Part shown: in pieces, positions 4 to 49,007 of the stretch
How positions within the stretch are numbered: the first letter of the stretch is position 1
How the letters are laid out: each line of letters starts with the position of its first letter
The notes under the pieces: model-generated
Told to the model about the DNA's origin: nothing
Databases searched by the model: none
The model's input: only the letters and a program-made list of their open reading frames with translations
Program-made: the position numbers and the translations under genes
Assembly: GCA_030698665.1 (NCBI GenBank)
Contig: JAUYMI010000029.1
Span: 1-50,301, forward strand
DNA length: 50,301 bases
Origin: a bacterium
Lineage (GTDB): Bacteria; Patescibacteriota; Minisyncoccia; Minisyncoccales; UBA10102
Reading direction: 5' to 3'

Positions 4-462
4 TTATTCCCGCACCTTCACGATCACCTTGCGCTCAAGACCCTCACCAATACTCTCCGTTGCCACGTCTTCCCTGGAATCAAGCTCCATGTGAACAATC
101 CGGCGCTCAGCTGCGGTCATTGGAGGAAGTTCCTTTGGCCGCTTGAGAAGAGACACCTCGTCAGCTGTGGTGCGAGCCAGCTCCCGGATATAGGTTTCCT
201 TGTTCTTCTTGTAGTCGTTTATATCAACATTCAGGTAGAAAGGTTCCTCTACTTTCTTCCTCATAATCGCCTTGAGAAGATGCTGGAGTTCGCCAAGGGT
301 CTGCCCCTTCTCTCCTATGAACATGCGGGGCTCGTCCGTTGTGAGGCGGATGAGAACCGAGTCCTCTCCCGTGCTCTCAACCTGAATACGGGAACCCAGG
401 CCGAGCTTCTCAAAAAACTCTTTTGCGATAGCTTCTATTGTTCTAAGTGATTCTTTGCTCAT
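4..462 (-). CDS. jag: Jag/KhpB-type RNA-binding protein (KH + R3H)
   Basis: ORF 4..498. The ATG at 460-462 overlaps the yidC stop (ATGA). An R3H-like C-terminus (MTAAERRIVHMEL) and the position after yidC match the conserved rnpA-yidC-jag arrangement. Confidence 0.8.
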   Translation of the reverse strand: MSKESLRTIEAIAKEFFEKLGLGSRIQVESTGEDSVLIRLTTDEPRMFIGEKGQTLGELQHLLKAIMRKKVEEPFYLNVDINDYKKNKETYIRELARTTADEVSLLKRPKELPPMTAAERRIVHMELDSREDVATESIGEGLERKVIVKVRE

Positions 463-27050: not shown

Positions 27051-27078
27051 TTGACAGGGTTTTTTGTGGCGGTATACT
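27051..27078 (+). promoter_or_regulatory. strong promoter for the greA leader
   Basis: TTGACA 27051-27056, a 16-nt spacer, TATACT 27073-27078, beginning 3 nt after the EndoQ-like stop. Confidence 0.55.
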
Positions 27079-27199
27079 GATATACCACGATGAAGATGGC
27101 AAGAAACAACAAAAGGTTCCCATCTTGGAAGTTGGTATTTATGGCCCGACCGGATTTGTTGCTTTTGTAGCCCTCCTATCTCAGTCAAGCAACGAATCT

Positions 27200-27221
27200 G
27201 GCGGATCGAATCCGCCTTTTT
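27200..27221 (+). terminator. intrinsic terminator 8 nt upstream of the greA ATG
   Basis: GGCGGAT-CGA-ATCCGCC followed by TTTTT. Confidence 0.65.
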
Positions 27222-27229
27222 CAACCCAT

Positions 27230-42819: not shown

Positions 42820-43856
42820 TGGTTTCTCAGTACGGTTCCCTTGATATCACGTGGCCCACAATCTTCAAGCTTGCGCTTGCCGCTTTTGGCCTGTACGTGA
42901 TTTTTCTGATCAAGGACATCTTGGTCTGGGTACTTTTCGCTCTTGTCATTTCGGTGGTCTTTGACCCGGTCATTGATTTTCTTTGCAAACGCCGGATTCC
43001 CAGAACCCTGGCCGCTGTCCTGGTCTACTCTATGCTCTTTGCGTTCCTTGCCTTCACTATCTATAGTTCGGCCCCCTTCTTTCTTAAAGAGATTCAGCGC
43101 TTTTCCGCGCTCTTCCCTCAGTACTTTGAAACTCTAGCCCCTCCTTTGCAGGGAATCGGGATCACGGCGTTCTCTGACTTTCAAAGTTTTCTGGATGCGG
43201 TGGGCGGGAGCATTCAGCAGCTTGGGTCCAGTGCCGTTTCGGGCCTTTCAACCGTATTCGGGGGCCTCTTTTCCATGATCTTCGTCATCTCCATCGCGAT
43301 TTTCCTTTCCATTGAGGAGAAGTCCGTGGACCGCGCCATCTCCCTGCTTTTCCCAAAGAAGTATGAGGCCGTCGCTTTGAAGGTGTGGGGGCGAAGCCAG
43401 CGTCAGGTGGCGGGCTGGTTTCTCACTCGCCTGTTCTCCTCTGCGTTTGTGGGAGTTGCAACCTACATCGCTCTGGTGATTCTCAACGTTCCGTATCCCT
43501 TTTCCCTTTCACTTTTTTCAGGAGTTTTGAATCTTATCCCAATCGTAGGGCCTCTGCTTACTGGTGTCTTAATCGGAGGCGTAGTCGCATTGGATTCCAT
43601 ACCCAAGGCAATTTTTGTCCTGCTTTCCTTTATTCTCATTCAGCAGATTGAAGGAAACGTTCTCACCCCTCTTCTCACCAACCGTTTCGTCGGCCTGCCT
43701 CCCGCCCTTGTTCTCATCTCCCTGGCCATCGGAGGTCAGCTCTGGGGAGTGATGGGAGCCATTCTCGCAATTCCGTTAGCAGGCATCCTCTATGAATTCC
43801 TCCGGGATTTTCTCAAGAGGCGCCGCGAGGAGGAGGCGAAGGCCGCTCCTGTTTGA
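42819..43856 (+). CDS. AI-2E (PerM/UPF0118) family transporter
   Basis: 345 aa, ~8 TM, with NLIPIVGPLL and AILAIPLAG segments typical of the family. Confidence 0.85.
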   Translation: MVSQYGSLDITWPTIFKLALAAFGLYVIFLIKDILVWVLFALVISVVFDPVIDFLCKRRIPRTLAAVLVYSMLFAFLAFTIYSSAPFFLKEIQRFSALFPQYFETLAPPLQGIGITAFSDFQSFLDAVGGSIQQLGSSAVSGLSTVFGGLFSMIFVISIAIFLSIEEKSVDRAISLLFPKKYEAVALKVWGRSQRQVAGWFLTRLFSSAFVGVATYIALVILNVPYPFSLSLFSGVLNLIPIVGPLLTGVLIGGVVALDSIPKAIFVLLSFILIQQIEGNVLTPLLTNRFVGLPPALVLISLAIGGQLWGVMGAILAIPLAGILYEFLRDFLKRRREEEAKAAPV

Positions 43857-43881
43857 CGTTTTGAGCCAGTATGCGTATCCT
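43853..43881 (+). promoter_or_regulatory. candidate promoter of orphan cassette 0
   Basis: TTGACG (43853-43858, overlapping the AI-2E TGA stop), a 17-nt spacer, then TATCCT (43876-43881). Confidence 0.4.
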
Positions 43882-43902
43882 TTGAGCAGGAAGGAGAGAC
43901 AC

Positions 43903-44121
43903 ATGGCTCTTTTGCAAGAGGAGCTTGAGCTCGCCTGTGGGGAAAAGCAACGAGTCTGCTTCCAGGGAAGGGTCGTGGGTACGCTCTTTGCCGTGCATAC
44001 GAGCGCTGACTCCGTTCTCGGGGCGCTCGTCGTTACGAGGAGCCGCGTCACGAGATCCGGCCTTGAAGCTTTTACGGCTTGGTTCCCGGCAGCCGAACTC
44101 TCGCTCGCGGAACCTCAATGA
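43903..44121 (+). CDS. hypothetical 72-aa protein (orphan cassette 0)
   Basis: GGAAGGAGAG Shine-Dalgarno 5-14 nt upstream of the ATG. Sequence MALLQEELELACGEKQRVCFQGRVVGTLFAVHTSADSVLGALVVTRSRVTRSGLEAFTAWFPAAELSLAEPQ. A terminator follows immediately. Confidence 0.45.
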   Translation: MALLQEELELACGEKQRVCFQGRVVGTLFAVHTSADSVLGALVVTRSRVTRSGLEAFTAWFPAAELSLAEPQ

Positions 44122-44147
44122 TCCCGATACGTCGGGGTCTTCTTTTT
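44120..44147 (+). terminator. intrinsic terminator of cassette 0
   Basis: GATCCCGA-TACG-TCGGGGTC followed by TTCTTTTT. Confidence 0.65.
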
Positions 44148-44179
44148 GAGAGAAGAGATAATTATGATACAACACTCGT

Positions 44180-45616
44180 ATGGAGAAGTTTTATGTCACA
44201 AGTGCGATTCCTTATGTGAACGCCCGGCCCCATCTCGGTCACGCCTTGGAATTCGTCCAGGCGGATGTTATTTCCCGCTTTCATCGTCAGAAAGGGGAAG
44301 ACGTACTTTTGCTGTCCGGGAGTGACGACAACGCCCTAAAGAACGTGCAGGCGGCAGAACAGGCGGGGGTTCCCGTGGAGCAGTTCGTTGAAGAGAACGG
44401 TCAGCTTTTTTTTGAGCTGGCCCAGGCGCTTGGCGTGCACCTTGATATATTCCAGCGGGGAACCAGTAAGGAGCATCACTCCTCAAGCCAGAAACTGTGG
44501 GAGCTGTGTCGCAAGGCAGGTGACATCTACAAAGATTCCTATGAGGGGCTGTACTGTGTGGGGTGCGAGGTCTTCTACGTGAGAGGCGAACTCAACGAGA
44601 AGGGAGAGTGTCCCGAGCACCCCGGCAAGAAGCTGGAAAAGGTTTCAGAAGAGAACTACTTCTTCCGTCTCTCCAAGTATCAAAAGCAACTGGTTGAGCT
44701 TCTGGAGAAAGACGAACTGCGCATCATTCCAGAATCCAGGAAGAACGAGATGTTGGCGTTTCTCAGAGAACCCCTCCAAGATATCAGTATTTCCAGATCC
44801 AACGAGCGCGCCCGCAACTGGGGAGTTCCGGTTCCCGAAGACGAGGGGCAGAGAATGTACGTTTGGTTTGACGCTTTGAACATCTACCAATCAGGCATAG
44901 GTTTCGGGTCTGACGAGGGAAAGTACAAAAAGTGGTGGCCAGCTGACGTGCAGGTCATTGGAAAAGGCATCGCGCGCTTTCATGCCGTGTATTGGCCGGC
45001 CTTTCTTCTCTCAGCAGGACTTCCTTTGCCAAAGGTGCTGTTCGTGCACGGGTATCTCACCGTAGAGGGCAAGAAGATGTCCAAGTCCGTGGGAAACGTT
45101 GTTGATCCGTTCGAGCTGATTGAGCGGTACGGGGCAGACGCCCTCAGGTACTTTCTTTTGCGCGAGATTCCGGCAAGCGAGGACGGGGACTACAGCCGCG
45201 AGAAGTTTGAGACGAGGTACAATGCTGACTTGGCGTCCGGGCTCGGGAATTTGACGGCTCGAGTACTGACCTTAGCAGAAAAGAACAAGATGAAGGTTCC
45301 AAAACGTGTGGGGGATCGCCTTGGTTCAGCGCTTCGTGGGGCAAAAGAAAAGCTGGAGCAGGATCTTTCTGAGTTCCAGTTTGGTTCTGCCCTGGGAGCT
45401 ATATGGGAGCTTATTACCATATGCGACAGATATATTGAGGCAAAGAAGCCCTGGGAGGAATCAGAAGAACAGGAGGAGGTGATAGCCGACCTCATGTTTG
45501 TCCTCAGAGAGATTGGGGATATGCTGAAACCCTTTCTGCCTGAAACATCAGAGAGGATAGTAGCTCAACTCAAAACTGGCAAAGGGGAATCTTTGTTCCC
45601 TCGTATTGCTTCTTGA
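44180..45616 (+). CDS. metG: methionyl-tRNA synthetase (short form, no C-terminal tRNA-binding domain)
   Basis: HIGH (PYVNARPHLGHALE), zinc knuckle (CVGCE...CPEHPG), KMSKSVGN. Confidence 0.93.
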   Translation: MEKFYVTSAIPYVNARPHLGHALEFVQADVISRFHRQKGEDVLLLSGSDDNALKNVQAAEQAGVPVEQFVEENGQLFFELAQALGVHLDIFQRGTSKEHHSSSQKLWELCRKAGDIYKDSYEGLYCVGCEVFYVRGELNEKGECPEHPGKKLEKVSEENYFFRLSKYQKQLVELLEKDELRIIPESRKNEMLAFLREPLQDISISRSNERARNWGVPVPEDEGQRMYVWFDALNIYQSGIGFGSDEGKYKKWWPADVQVIGKGIARFHAVYWPAFLLSAGLPLPKVLFVHGYLTVEGKKMSKSVGNVVDPFELIERYGADALRYFLLREIPASEDGDYSREKFETRYNADLASGLGNLTARVLTLAEKNKMKVPKRVGDRLGSALRGAKEKLEQDLSEFQFGSALGAIWELITICDRYIEAKKPWEESEEQEEVIADLMFVLREIGDMLKPFLPETSERIVAQLKTGKGESLFPRIAS

Positions 45617-45642
45617 CAGGAGGCGCCTACCCCACGTATACT
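45613..45642 (+). promoter_or_regulatory. promoter of orphan cassette 1
   Basis: TTGACA (45613-45618, containing the metG TGA stop), an 18-nt spacer, then TATACT (45637-45642). Confidence 0.5.
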
Positions 45643-45648
45643 CTGTAT

Positions 45649-45876
45649 TGTGAGTATGCACGTAGTAAACATTAGGACAATTAAGCAGTACTTCTTTGGA
45701 TTTTCCGCCCGCTTAGGGCTGGGAGATTCGTTGCGCGCATAGACAGACATTGTCTTGAACCAGCGAGCCCTCCCAGCCCGGGGGGCTCTTTCTTTGAGCT
45801 CAGTACCCAGGGAAATCCCTGCATACTGCGCTCACATGGAGTGCAGACAGTACACGAAAGGGGGGTGGGTGCTTAC
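45649..45876 (+). promoter_or_regulatory. ~230-nt structured leader with alternative helices (attenuator-like)
   Basis: Helix GGGCTGGGAG (45716-45725) / CTCCCAGCCC (45770-45779) is mutually exclusive with the hairpin 45765-45788 (GAGCCCTCC-CAGCCC-GGGGGGCTC) plus TTTCTTT. A 38-nt imperfect palindrome follows at 45796-45833. Confidence 0.4.
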
Positions 45877-46272
45877 ATGAACTCCACCATCGTGGGAATG
45901 CCTGGCGTGGCGGCCGGCTCAAGGATCATCGACATCCTCTTGAGCTCGGATCTTCAAGAGCGCACTGCTCGTCGAGACAGACACGACGAGCTTCGGCAGT
46001 CGGATGTCCTCGTGGTCGTGCAGAGCGGAGCCGCTGGAGCGTCCTTCCAGAGGTATCCCCCGCACGGCATTTCTCCGGATCTTGAAGGGGCAGCCGGCTA
46101 CCTGATTGTTCCCCCGGTTCCAGAAGGAGAGTGCTCCCCTGAACTGATGGACATGATCATCACGCGGGCCAGGCATGCCCTGACCGCGGCGGACATGGCT
46201 CTCAACGGCGGCAGTGGGTGGAAGCCGGCCAGGGCTGGCGGGCCTCGTACCCGCCACGACAGCTTCGTGTAG
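45877..46272 (+). CDS. hypothetical 131-aa protein (orphan cassette 1), G+C-rich
   Basis: AAAGGGGGG lies upstream of the ATG. In this frame 46 of the first 63 codons end in G/C (hand count), whereas the overlapping minus-strand ORF puts those positions at codon position 2. I recognise no family. Confidence 0.5.
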   Translation: MNSTIVGMPGVAAGSRIIDILLSSDLQERTARRDRHDELRQSDVLVVVQSGAAGASFQRYPPHGISPDLEGAAGYLIVPPVPEGECSPELMDMIITRARHALTAADMALNGGSGWKPARAGGPRTRHDSFV

Positions 46273-46311
46273 GGCGCCTTCGCAGTCAGTCTCTAATCGT
46301 GTGGTGCATAA

Positions 46312-46347
46312 GGGGTTCCCTGGTATCCAGAGAGCCCCGTTTTCTTT
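46312..46347 (+). terminator. intrinsic terminator of cassette 1
   Basis: GGGGTTC-C-CTGG-TAT-CCAG-A-GAGCCCC followed by GTTTTCTTT. Confidence 0.65.
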
Positions 46348-46358
46348 ACAATATACCT

Positions 46359-47237
46359 ATGTATATAGACACGCACGGACACGTGAACTTCAACGCTTTT
46401 AAGGATGACGGCAAGGAGGTGCTGGATAGAGCGCTGAAGCTGAATACCTGGGTCATCATGCCGGGCTCCCAGCTCACGACATCTGCGAGGGCTGTTGAGT
46501 TGGCTCAGGAGTATGCGGAGGGCGTGTATGCTGCAGTGGGCCTCCATCCTATTCACTTAGACAAGCGGGAGGTGGACGTGCAGGAGGTGCAGTCAGAGGA
46601 AGTAAGGGAGCGCCCCTGGATGCTTTTTGAAACTCGGGGAGAAGAGTTTTTATACGAAGAGTACAAGCGTTTGGCTCAGAGTAAAAAGGTGGTTGCTATT
46701 GGAGAAGTTGGACTTGACTACTATCACCAGCCCAGTTCCCAGGGAAAGAGAAAAGAGTACAGAGAACGTCAGAAGAACGTTCTGAATCAGCAGATTGACC
46801 TTGCCCTTGAGTTGGACCTTCCCCTCATTCTCCACTGTAGGGTTGCTCACCAAGATATGATAGCTTTGCTGAGAGAGCGGCAAGACAAGAGCGGAGGAAA
46901 GCTGAGGGGTGTGATGCACAGCTATACGGGTACCTCAGAGCAGGCCCAAGAGCTCGCGGAGCTTGGATTTTCCTTTGGTTTTAACGGCCTCATCTTCAAG
47001 GACGTGCCTGCTTTGCCTCCTCCGTCAGAGGTTATTTCTTCAATTCCCTCAGATCGCATCGTGCTGGAGACGGATAGCCCGTATCTTGTGCCTCCCAAAG
47101 CCGGAGTTGAGAGAAACGAACCTGCCTTTGTACGCTTCGTGGCAGAGGAAATTGCCAGGGCGAAGGGCATTTCCGTAGAGGAGATTGCCTCTGTCACAAC
47201 TGCCAACGCCAAAGCCCTCTTCTCTTTATCTCCTTAG
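46359..47237 (+). CDS. tatD: TatD-family metal-dependent hydrolase/DNase
   Basis: YIDTHGHVNF, GEVGLDY, LILHCR, ETDSPYL. The ATG lies 6 nt after TACAAT (46347-46352). Confidence 0.88.
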   Translation: MYIDTHGHVNFNAFKDDGKEVLDRALKLNTWVIMPGSQLTTSARAVELAQEYAEGVYAAVGLHPIHLDKREVDVQEVQSEEVRERPWMLFETRGEEFLYEEYKRLAQSKKVVAIGEVGLDYYHQPSSQGKRKEYRERQKNVLNQQIDLALELDLPLILHCRVAHQDMIALLRERQDKSGGKLRGVMHSYTGTSEQAQELAELGFSFGFNGLIFKDVPALPPPSEVISSIPSDRIVLETDSPYLVPPKAGVERNEPAFVRFVAEEIARAKGISVEEIASVTTANAKALFSLSP

Positions 47238-47331
47238 CTTAGCTCAGGCATATTCATGCCTAAACGAGATTTAGTTTTCCACAGGTAGGAACTTTGTTTT
47301 TTCTGAGGAGACGGTATAATAAAACAATGCA

Positions 47332-47613
47332 ATGTCGCTAGTCGGCATTCCAGATAGCACCTCAGATGAGGTGAGTAGCGCGGAAGGAAGTATCATGGCG
47401 TCTCCTCGGGATTACATGACCCTTCAGGATCTGGTTGCCGTTCGACCATCGATCTCGTCGATTCGCACGGCACGTCGTCTAGCCAGGGAAGGGGCCTTCG
47501 GCGAGCCGATCCGGTGTGGGAGCAGGATTCTGGTCCCACAGTCGGCCGCCAGGGAGACCGTGACTCCTGACCGCCGCGTCGTCCACCAGGAGCCGTTGCT
47601 CCCAGCCGCCTAG
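47332..47613 (+). CDS. excisionase/MerR-like helix-turn-helix small protein (orphan cassette 2)
   Basis: The core MTLQDLVAVRPSISSIRTARRLAREGAFGEPIRCGSRILVPQSA matches the Xis-family HTH pattern (LT..E.A..L.VS..T..R....G.....R.G.R..V). TATAAT at 47315-47320. An alternative start at ATG 47395 has a GGAAGGAAG Shine-Dalgarno. Confidence 0.5.
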   Translation: MSLVGIPDSTSDEVSSAEGSIMASPRDYMTLQDLVAVRPSISSIRTARRLAREGAFGEPIRCGSRILVPQSAARETVTPDRRVVHQEPLLPAA

Positions 47614-47713
47614 TCCTCTCTCGGGAGGGCTAGCAACTAAGTTAAGGGATTTCGGAGTTCCTGTCGCAACAAGAAGTACCCCCGCCGCACGGCAGGTATC
47701 TCCGTTCCTGATT

Positions 47714-47758
47714 GTCGGAGAGGAGGACTCTCCCACTCCTCTCCGACAGCACTTTTTT
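47714..47758 (+). terminator. intrinsic terminator of cassette 2 (convergent with the glycosylase gene)
   Basis: GTCGGAGAGGAG (47714-47725) pairs with CTCCTCTCCGAC (47736-47747), followed by AGCACTTTTTT. Confidence 0.65.
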
Positions 47759-48579
47759 CAATCTTGAATAAGGTAGGAGTGAAGAGACTCGGCAATCAGC
47801 CCGTCTTGCACAAGAGACTCAATGATGTCATCCGCCTCCCAGGGCGCTTTTTGTTTGTGGAGTTGTTGATCAAGAAAGCTACGTAGGACTTTTTTCTCCA
47901 CGCCTTCTTTTTCCAGGAGCATCTTGACAATACTGGTTCGAAAAGAGCGGAAGGAACCCTCAAAGCGGCTCTGCTTTGCATAGTGGCGGCTTTGCCTGTT
48001 TACCTTTTTATCCTTCAGCTCTACGGCTCCATAGTCAAAGAGGGCGTAATGCCATTCCCGAGGATCTTCTCTCCACACCACCTTTTGGGCAATCGTCAAA
48101 ATATCTTTGTCTGATACCTCAGCTTTGTCTTTGAAGAAAAAATGCAGATAGACGCGCCTGATGTTTGTGTCAATGAAGGCCTCCGGGTTCAGAAAGGCAA
48201 AACAGGCAACCGCCCTGGCCGTGTACGGCCCAACTCCCGGAAGCTTCTCAAGCTCCCTCGGGTCTTTTGGAAATCTTCCTTTGTGTTCTTGTTGTATAAT
48301 CCTGGCTGTCTCTTTCAGATTCAGAGCCCGCTTCCAGTACCCCAGGCCTTTCCACACGGAAAGAAGCTCTCTGTCTGGGGCACGGGCAAGGGCTTTCAGA
48401 GTAGGGAATGCCTTGAGAAACTCAGGGTACTTTTCAAGCACCCGGGATACCTGGGTCTGCTGGAGCATGACCTCAGAGACAAGAATCTCGTACGGGTCCT
48501 TTGTCTTGCGCCAGGGGAGGTCCCGTTTGTTGTTTTTGTACCAACCAAGAACTGTTTTCTGAAGTTTTTGGACGCTCAT
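47758..48579 (-). CDS. HhH-GPD DNA glycosylase, MutY/Nth-like but without the 4Fe-4S cysteine cluster
   Basis: DLPWRKTKDPYEILVSEVMLQQTQV, HhH-GPD hairpin LPGVGPYTARAV, catalytic Asp context FIDTNIRRV. The whole protein has a single Cys and the C-terminal ~80 aa are unrelated to the MutY Nudix-like domain. Confidence 0.85.
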   Translation of the reverse strand: MSVQKLQKTVLGWYKNNKRDLPWRKTKDPYEILVSEVMLQQTQVSRVLEKYPEFLKAFPTLKALARAPDRELLSVWKGLGYWKRALNLKETARIIQQEHKGRFPKDPRELEKLPGVGPYTARAVACFAFLNPEAFIDTNIRRVYLHFFFKDKAEVSDKDILTIAQKVVWREDPREWHYALFDYGAVELKDKKVNRQSRHYAKQSRFEGSFRSFRTSIVKMLLEKEGVEKKVLRSFLDQQLHKQKAPWEADDIIESLVQDGLIAESLHSYLIQD

Positions 48580-48619
48580 GTCTCAGAGTATACCCCGCTT
48601 CCTTTTGTGGACAAAGTCC

Positions 48620-48647
48620 TTGACAAAAACCGCAAAAGGAGTATACT
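48620..48647 (+). promoter_or_regulatory. promoter of orphan cassette 3
   Basis: TTGACA 48620-48625, a 16-nt spacer, TATACT 48642-48647. Confidence 0.5.
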
Positions 48648-48700
48648 GTTTATATGTGCGGACAAAGGGTCTGCGCTGTTGTAGGAAGGGAGCTCCCTCC

Positions 48701-48796
48701 ATGATGCTCATTCGAGCAGGTCCGATGGTCGCCGTCACGACCAAGGTGAACGTCGCCAACGACATCGCGACCGGCGCCGCGGACACCGCCGCCTAA
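48701..48796 (+). CDS. possible 31-aa peptide MMLIRAGPMVAVTTKVNVANDIATGAADTAA
   Basis: GGGAG lies 8 nt upstream of the ATG. 27 of 31 codons end in G/C and G+C is ~65% (hand count), against ~53% in the first 100 nt of leuS. Confidence 0.3.
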   Translation: MMLIRAGPMVAVTTKVNVANDIATGAADTAA

Positions 48797-48902
48797 CACC
48801 GCCTCGACACGCGGTGAGAGGCGATCTCGCCGAAGAAGGGAAATTCCCATGGTTCGGACTCGCGCGAGTCCCTAGCCCGTAAGGGCGCACGTAGTCTCCG
48901 CA

Positions 48903-48969
48903 GGGACGGGGGTCATCAGTCATCGCACTGAGCCCCCGTCCCGCCCACTCCCCATTTCAGGGGTTTTTT
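48903..48969 (+). terminator. tandem hairpins plus T6 ending cassette 3
   Basis: GGGACGGGGG...CCCCCGTCCC (10 bp, with inner TCAGT/ACTGA), then CCCC-ATTTCA-GGGG-TTTTTT. Confidence 0.55.
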
Positions 48970-49007
48970 GATGGACAAAAGACCCGAAAAAGCGTAGAAT
49001 CTGCCCC

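Follow-up and report, generated by a model that had tools for sequence, protein, structure and literature searches.

The window analysed in this study is an entire contig of 50.3 kb from the genome of an uncultivated member of the Patescibacteria. It contains, in the gap of 742 nt that separates metG (44180-45616) from the gene of a TatD-family hydrolase (46359-47237, in the following tatD), a probable regulatory element which is the subject of this paper. We consider it highly probable that positions 45613-45795 of this gap form a ribosome-mediated (leader-peptide) transcription attenuator, and that this attenuator belongs to a family which is common to Candidatus Wildermuthbacteria and neighbouring Patescibacteria. 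This view is derived from the sequence of the element and its homologs.

The contig is part of a genome of 572 kb in 29 contigs, which is referred to as G000 and whose relatives carry the label Candidatus Wildermuthbacteria, within the Parcubacteria/Patescibacteria. Its sequence occurs in two metagenome runs, both from groundwater. The tatD product is assigned to Pfam TatD_DNase (E 2e-70). The gap is unique and single-copy in the G000 genome, by which a repeat or mobile element could be ruled out, and neither tRNA nor tmRNA genes were found in the region. The comparison comprised 36 genomes of the same family, 21 of which contain the 36 distinct copies of the element, as well as 196 genomes belonging to other families of the same order.

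Promoter and leader peptide

The promoter TTGACA-18-TATACT, which was described in the initial annotation as embedding the metG stop codon, is indeed present. The two hexamers are located at 45613-45618 and 45637-45642, and the stop codon TGA (45614-45616) sits inside the -35 hexamer. All homologous copies but one (35 of 36) have a promoter of the type TTGACA-16..19-TAnnnT, and for the remaining copy, from G007, the scan gave no more than a weak match.

The promoter is directly followed by a short leader open reading frame (ORF), which was not noticed in the initial annotation. In G000 this ORF can start with GTG at 45650, which is 7 nt past the -10 box and therefore in a leaderless position, or with ATG at 45656, 13 nt past the -10 box. 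Its product reads M(SM)HVVNIRTIKQYFFGFSARLGLGDSLRA. All 36 copies contain a leader ORF at the same place, with a length of 22-38 codons (64 in one copy) and a start codon 3-27, often 7 nt past the -10 box. When a strict geometry was applied, the ORF was still found in 28 of the copies, as compared to 4.2 expected from dinucleotide shuffles.

The leader peptides have little sequence in common, and each of them contains a run of one residue type. Runs of phenylalanine (FFFFAFF, FFFFFIF), isoleucine (IIIIITI, IEIISII, IIGIITI) and leucine (LLLGLLLLL) as well as runs like ILLVLIL and LLLLVLV were seen. The Phe/Ile/Leu/Val codon run of the relatives usually ends about 10-20 nt before the segment which is called region 2 below. 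G000 has a single copy of the element, and its run is a mixed Tyr/Phe run. A frameshift which could have converted a Leu/Ile/Val run into the G000 Phe run was considered for the closest homolog, from G017, and was dropped, as the pairwise alignment is too ambiguous there.

Antiterminator and terminator

Two competing helices had been reported for the leader in the initial annotation, a 10-bp helix (45716-45725/45770-45779) and a 9-bp hairpin (45765-45788) followed by TTTCTTT. Both of them are present, and both covary over the 36 homologs. The segment GGGCTGGGAG (region 2) is exactly complementary over 10 bp to CTCCCAGCCC (region 3), which lies in the 5' arm and loop of the terminator and is shared by terminator and antiterminator. 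For G000 the antiterminator duplex amounts to -23.1 kcal/mol, as compared to -12.9 kcal/mol in 200 dinucleotide shuffles (z -3.97, reached by 0/200), and the minimum free energy structure predicted by RNAfold for the transcript includes this 10-bp helix.

All 36 copies contain, 25-48 nt upstream of the terminator, a segment with complementarity to its 5' arm and loop. The mean z-score of the antiterminator is -3.76, and 34 copies are below -2 (200 dinucleotide shuffles each). In a model-based alignment of the copies (A2) 92% of the antiterminator cells pair, and one of the pairs is found as CG in 10, UA in 9 and UG in 6 copies, which are compensatory changes. The covariation score of the antiterminator is above those of all 500 shuffles, and sliding of the pairing partner lowers the pairing to 30-70%. 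The terminator pairs in 96.3% of its cells, with changes on both sides in eight of its ten pairs. Copies with divergent terminators carry a matching region 2, as CGAAGAG occurs with CTCTTCG, GGGGAGTGT with ACACTCCCC, and GGGAGGCC with GGCCTCCC. Antiterminator and terminator share columns 186-190 of A2, and the two helices are therefore mutually exclusive.

Upstream of region 2 lies region 1, which can form a protector hairpin with region 2 and is overlapped by the putative sensing codons of G000. A C-rich motif is found at this place in 29 of the 36 copies. The stop codon of the leader ORF is located 14-30 nt past the start of region 2 in most copies, and just before region 2 in G006 and G033. 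As a short leader ORF is present, the G000 element is classed as a leader-peptide attenuator and not as a riboswitch. Between these two possibilities the initial annotation had not decided.

Codon runs and downstream genes

The residue type of the leader run agrees with the downstream gene wherever that gene can be recognised. Leaders with Phe runs (FFFFAFF, FFFFFIF) are followed by a gene of prephenate dehydratase (Pfam PDT, E-values as low as 2e-50) in three genomes, G002, G030 and G017, and a Leu-run leader (..NLLLGLLLLL..) is found ahead of the HMGL-like 2-isopropylmalate synthase gene leuA in G015 (L088). A Met-rich leader (..VVMGMVMSF..) stands ahead of metE, which encodes a cobalamin-independent methionine synthase (Meth_synt_1), in G080, a genome of another family (L094). 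Such an agreement between run and cargo is, as read from these sequences, the signature of ribosome-mediated attenuation known from pheL-pheA and the ilv/leu leaders. Furthermore, a Leu/Val/Ile leader (..WMLVVLFIIPNRLGVF..) was observed ahead of a gene of the Asp/Glu racemase family in G007 (L074).

Distribution of the element

A profile of four copies, including that of G000, detected the element ahead of tatD in 14 relatives or more. Thirteen copies were aligned (A1) and a covariance model (R1) was built. R1 detects the element in 21 of the 36 family genomes, with one to three copies each and nearly all of them between metG and tatD, as well as in 20 of the 196 genomes from other families. 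The G000 copy, which was included in the model, is scored by R1 with 80.8 bits. An nhmmer profile made from the 35 other copies matches the G000 genome only at 45675-45795 (E 1.2e-10). The unit had been named an orphan cassette, which does not hold for the leader, as this is now known from at least 21 related genomes, and holds for the 131-aa frame behind it, for which no relatives were found.

At the DNA level the gap of G000 matches its relatives in two short pieces only. One piece consists of the last 45 nt with the final terminator. The other one, the first terminator, has its counterpart in G017, where the matching site lies 365 nt ahead of tatD. This site was read out and proved to be a full homolog of the G000 leader, with an identical TTGACA-18-TATACT promoter, the start region GTGAGTATG, the segment CTGGGAGATT and the terminator.

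The distance between metG and tatD varies across the family from 7-14 nt (G023, G024) up to 7.6 kb (G020). In the family genomes (L042-L058) the interval appears as a hot spot of gene turnover. By eye, its contents include prephenate dehydratase, DAHP synthase, M20/M24-like peptidases, a HAD-like hydrolase, one to three attenuator cassettes and small ORFs; PDT among them was confirmed by Pfam for three genes.

Proposed mechanism

The features of the unit are listed in Table 1. In the mechanism which we propose, the consensus promoter would start a nearly leaderless mRNA, the first 28-30 codons of which would be translated. A freely moving ribosome would head for the stop codon (45740) and pass over region 2, so that the terminator (45765-45788 and U-tract) would form. 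The expected product is an attenuated RNA of about 146 nt, which agrees well with the small RNA of about 140 nt that had been predicted in the initial annotation for the case of termination. If there is no translation, region 1 would pair with region 2, and termination would result likewise. A ribosome stalled on the Tyr-Phe-Phe-Gly-Phe codons (45689-45703) would cover region 1 and free region 2, which could then pair with the 5' arm and loop of the terminator (45770-45779), and the polymerase would read through. The read-through RNA would contain the hairpin at 45796-45833, the Shine-Dalgarno-like stretch and the 131-codon frame, and would end at the ancestral terminator before tatD. We infer that termination is regulated in vivo.

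Table 1. Features of the metG-tatD gap of G000 (positions refer to the window).
Feature	Position	Strand	Remarks
Sigma-70-type promoter TTGACA-18-TATACT	45613..45642	+	11/12 match
Leader-peptide ORF, 28-30 codons	45650/45656-45742	+	stop TAG 45740-45742
Putative sensing codons TAC TTC TTT GGA TTT (Tyr-Phe-Phe-Gly-Phe)	45689..45703	+	read from sequence; end 12 nt before region 2
Region 1, TTTTCCGCCC, can pair with region 2 (protector hairpin)	45701..45710	+	1:2 duplex -18.1 kcal/mol in G000
Region 2, GGGCTGGGAG, antiterminator 5' strand	45716..45725	+	YTGGGAG motif nearly invariant in the family
Intrinsic terminator GAGCCCTCC-CAGCCC-GGGGGGCTC and TTTCTTT	45765..45795	+	9-bp hairpin 45765-45788
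Post-terminator hairpin, 38-nt imperfect palindrome	45796..45833	+	15/18 positions paired; -32.7 kcal/mol for 45790-45880, z -2.2
G-rich Shine-Dalgarno-like stretch GGGGGGTGGG	45860..45869	+	7 nt before ATG 45877
131-codon ORF in cargo position	45877..46272	+	G+C 63.6%; open; 195 codons stop to stop
Final terminator GGGGTTCCCTGG-TAT-CCAGAGAGCCCC-G-TTTTCTTT	46312..46347	+	hairpin 46312-46338, then G-TTTTCTTT
-10 box TACAAT of tatD	46347..46352	+	6 nt before tatD ATG (46359), adjoins final terminator

Several observations weigh against this mechanism. The pairing between regions 1 and 2 is weak or irregular in many relatives. The stop codon of G000 lies 15 nt beyond region 2, and a ribosome standing there would barely cover this region. 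The thermodynamic optimum of the full-length G000 leader is the antiterminator, which is extended by a pairing of the 1:4 type between GCCC (45707-45710) and GGGC of the 3' terminator arm, ending 1-2 nt before the U-tract. Therefore the default state and the effect of the long helix are not predictable from energy alone. The codon run of G000 is the weakest in the family, with three Phe codons and one Tyr codon within five codons, and the G000 genome contains no pheA, leuA or aroG. The chances that phenylalanine, perhaps together with tyrosine, is the signal in G000 are in our opinion about even. Moreover, the cargo frame is without independent support as a gene, and the run search found the sequence in two DNA metagenome runs only and in no RNA run.

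The predicted read-through transcript

A long hairpin directly past the U-tract is found in 32 of the 36 copies (z < -2, mean z -3.7). The sequences of these hairpins are unrelated, and their stem often pulls the U-tract into its base. For the palindrome of G000 both an RNA hairpin and an operator had been proposed in the initial annotation. Because the structure is kept without the sequence, it is regarded as an RNA element of the read-through transcript and not as a sequence-specific protein operator. It may affect stability or processing, or serve as a second control step.

In the family a ribosome binding site and an ATG typically follow about 70-110 nt past the terminator. The relatives show past the hairpin the pattern GTACnTTnAA-GGAG..ATG at the same distance, and the counterpart in G000 is GTACACGAAAGGGGGGTGGG. 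The ATG of the 131-codon frame is located 82 nt past the U-tract, and by this spacing the frame begins where the cargo genes begin.

Neither the 60 relatives searched nor 5.8 billion proteins contain a homolog of the 131-aa product. A search of 1.8 billion cluster representatives gave a single match, the low-complexity repeat protein P0002, and there was no match in Pfam, NCBIfam, PHROGs or the PDB. Structure prediction with AlphaFold (AF2) resulted in a model with a mean confidence (pLDDT) of 41, which is too poor for a fold search. By eye the product seemed to resemble a 140-aa protein of G009 and G019, for which phmmer gave no support. Similarly, tblastn gave no similarity which would suggest a decayed pheA or other cargo from the relatives.

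At 0.078 per codon, the codon score of the frame exceeds those of the five other frames. It is 1.7 standard deviations below the mean of genes (0.19+-0.07) and 2.3 standard deviations above the mean of off-frames (-0.39+-0.21). A bias for G and C at the third codon position had been taken in the initial annotation as identification of the plus frame as coding. This argument could not be upheld, since the G+C contents at the three positions (0.66/0.53/0.71) are mirrored by the exact antisense frame (0.70/0.52/0.69), and open frames of 131 codons or more occur in 29% of the dinucleotide shuffles of this segment with 62% G+C. As both metagenome runs carry the identical sequence, there are no strain variants from which a ratio of non-synonymous to synonymous substitutions could be determined. 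The region is also not unusually structured as an RNA (fold z -0.22). Taken as a whole, the odds that the frame is a real gene appear about even.

The commonest cargo of the Leu/Ile/Val-type leaders, including the copies nearest to G000, is a conserved small protein of 43-100 aa which looks like a coiled coil and has the motif ..LERL..I..RL..P.VS.EEK.RA..RLEKT...I..L. It was found at seven loci (L043 in G001, L047 in G006, L048 in G033, L053 in G009, L055 in G017, L057 in G016 and L058 in G028). The members from G006 and G028, which were the two scanned, have no Pfam family, and G000 lacks the protein throughout its genome.

Two further cargo families were observed. One of them contains the motif SGHL(T/S)AQA(F/Y)HLRR(L/I)R (L073 in G035, L076 in G020), and the other one the motif ..CKYVL....VE(V/I)RT.R....LLQR.GQ(V/I)TRSDR.. 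(L071 in G021, L049 in G003); the members of both families that were scanned have no Pfam match. The small intergenic units of this stretch, at 43853-44147, 47315-47758 and 48580-49007 of the window, all have a G+C content of 60-65%, as compared to about 52% in the surrounding housekeeping genes. The 131-codon frame shows the same G+C excess, and these small ORFs may have a common foreign or recent origin.

Alternative explanations

The short ORF could instead encode a functional small hydrophobic peptide, such as a membrane peptide or a toxin. In that case the hairpin would merely be its terminator, and YTGGGAG would reflect a ..RLGDF.. motif of the peptide instead of RNA pairing. Many copies do contain ..R-L-G-D-F.. 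near the C-terminus and a hydrophobic core, and trans-acting leader peptides are known (peTrpL, PMC7298713). We nevertheless think that this is very improbable. In G006 and G033 the stop codon precedes CTGGGAG and the motif is still kept, copies with other terminators have a region 2 which matches their own terminator, the hydrophobic runs of 8-14 residues are too short for a membrane span, and the residue of the run differs according to the enzyme encoded downstream (Phe for PDT, Leu for leuA, Met for metE). A metabolite riboswitch or a T-box-like tRNA sensor, to which the helices would belong as expression platform, would likewise fit with the mutually exclusive helices, which are real. We attach next to no probability to such a sensor. 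Rfam contains no family that matches at E <= 1 over 44000-48000, including T-box and the Phe (RF01859), Leu, Thr, Trp and His leader families, and none that matches at gathering score across the whole window. Upstream of region 2 the homologs do not show a conserved structured core, only an ORF which varies freely save for the amino-acid run.

If the element is a leader-peptide attenuator, the question is what it regulates in G000. It is possible, although we would hold it to be rather doubtful, that the largely auxotrophic Wildermuthbacteria and neighbouring lineages of the candidate phyla radiation (CPR) use portable attenuators to read the charging of individual tRNAs and to gate fast-evolving, lineage-specific small genes, and that in G000 a sensor re-tuned to Phe/Tyr codons switches on a new 131-aa protein, arisen de novo or from an unknown donor, when the supply of aromatic amino acids by the host or the environment fails. 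The switch would then report starvation or a host interaction and would not serve biosynthetic feedback. The G000 attenuator could also be an evolutionary relic, which has lost its ancestral cargo (the coiled-coil protein or a biosynthetic gene) and is followed by G+C-rich non-coding or junk DNA (45834-46310), so that nothing useful is regulated. The lack of homologs of the cargo frame, its length within the range of chance (29% of shuffles), its codon score 1.7 standard deviations below the gene mean, the pLDDT of 41, the degenerate codon run and the absence of the coiled-coil cargo of the closest copies from the whole genome all fit with such a relic. On the other hand, all functional elements are intact, namely the promoter with 11/12 matches, the open leader ORF, the antiterminator with its perfect 10 bp, terminator and hairpin, as well as the Shine-Dalgarno-like stretch with an ATG at the family distance. 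Furthermore, none of the five other frames reaches the codon score of the plus frame, and a genome of 572 kb rarely retains 740 nt of useless DNA. We regard a relic as unlikely.

The downstream gene and neighbouring leader regions

The final terminator, with which the unit had been said to end, was found as described, and it is orthologous to the sequence directly upstream of tatD in G001, G006, G016, G028 and G033. In nearly all of 30 relatives (L012-L041) an intrinsic terminator is followed by a TAnnnT hexamer, which lies 6-9 nt ahead of the tatD start codon, mostly reads TACAAT or TAGAAT and is often preceded by TG. By this arrangement tatD looks separately promoted, leaderless and outside of the regulated unit. 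No terminator separates metG from the leader, so that transcripts of metG will probably stop at the attenuator as well.

Two other leader regions were observed in the window. Upstream of greA (27051-27229) a TTGACA-16-TATACT promoter and an 11-nt spacer are followed by a 26-codon ORF (ATG..MKMARNNKRFPSWKLVFMARPDLLLL) which ends in four Leu codons, and a terminator (GGCGGATCGAATCCGCC-TTTTT) is located 8 nt before the greA ATG. A partial match of R1 lies directly upstream of greA in G084, a genome of another family (L095). The greA leader may, as its sequence suggests, be another ribosome-sensing attenuator.

Upstream of leuS (48620-48990) a promoter TTGACA-16-TATACT is followed after 6 nt by a 16-codon ORF (MCGQRVCAVVGRELPP), the stop codon of which overlaps the start of a very G+C-rich frame of 31 codons. 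Downstream of these frames come G+C-rich hairpins over some 170 nt and a terminator of the type GGGG-TTTTTT. This element has no Rfam match at gathering score and is unlike model R1.

Comparison with known systems

Leader-peptide attenuation is a textbook mechanism, the known cases of which come for the most part from Proteobacteria, Actinobacteria and some Firmicutes. Our literature search found no paper in which it is described for Patescibacteria/CPR. The kind of switch is classical, and the metG-tatD family appears to be undescribed in the searchable literature.

The family shows how one modular switch is put to two uses, as it precedes recognisable biosynthetic genes (pheA, leuA, metE) and more often genes of tiny proteins of unknown function. 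The organisms concerned are thought to depend on others for their amino acids, and the element offers a concrete handle on nutrient sensing by ultrasmall symbionts. The gated small ORFs, including the orphan 131-codon frame, are candidate starvation-response genes. In a wider sense, seemingly empty intergenic gaps of CPR genomes can hide regulated micro-operons which are missed by gene callers and Rfam.

In the pheL-pheA attenuator of gamma-proteobacteria (Rfam RF01859 Phe_leader, Gurvich et al. 2011, PMC3082878) the Phe codons of a short leader ORF are likewise placed closely ahead of antiterminator and terminator, and in G002, G017 and G030 the element described here stands directly before the gene of prephenate dehydratase, too. 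In contrast to pheL-pheA, there is no similarity in sequence or to its covariance model, the mRNA is nearly leaderless, and an extra conserved hairpin is found past the terminator. G000 in particular has only three Phe codons and an orphan frame as cargo instead of pheA.

Leu/Ile/Val-rich leaders with a four-region design are known as ilvL, ivbL and leuL from enterobacteria. Counterparts of them occur in Actinobacteria (Seliverstov et al. 2005, PMC1262725) and also in Staphylococcus aureus (Kaiser et al. 2018, PMC5794164). Most Wildermuthbacteria copies are of this kind, including the nearest homolog of G000, which is found in G017 (..KLISLLVITP..). Unlike in the known examples, what follows the Wildermuthbacteria leaders is in most cases a small protein of unknown function and not an ilv/leu operon, and their copies cluster in one variable metG-tatD island.

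In Sinorhizobium meliloti the small RNA rnTrpL and the peptide peTrpL both act in trans (PMC7968998, PMC7298713). The terminated leader of G000, with about 146 nt, would be a discrete small RNA of the rnTrpL type. Unlike for rnTrpL and peTrpL, there is no sign of a trans-acting role here, for which no target search was made.

T-boxes bind uncharged tRNA directly, without translation. The element described here would resemble them in that tRNA charging is read via the choice between terminator and antiterminator, and differs from them in that no T-box covariance model matches the G000 region. Compared to the textbook attenuators, the family as a whole is distinguished by its near-leaderless ORF, the conserved hairpin past the terminator, the clustering in one island, and a cargo that mostly consists of small unknown proteins in a lineage with low biosynthetic capacity.

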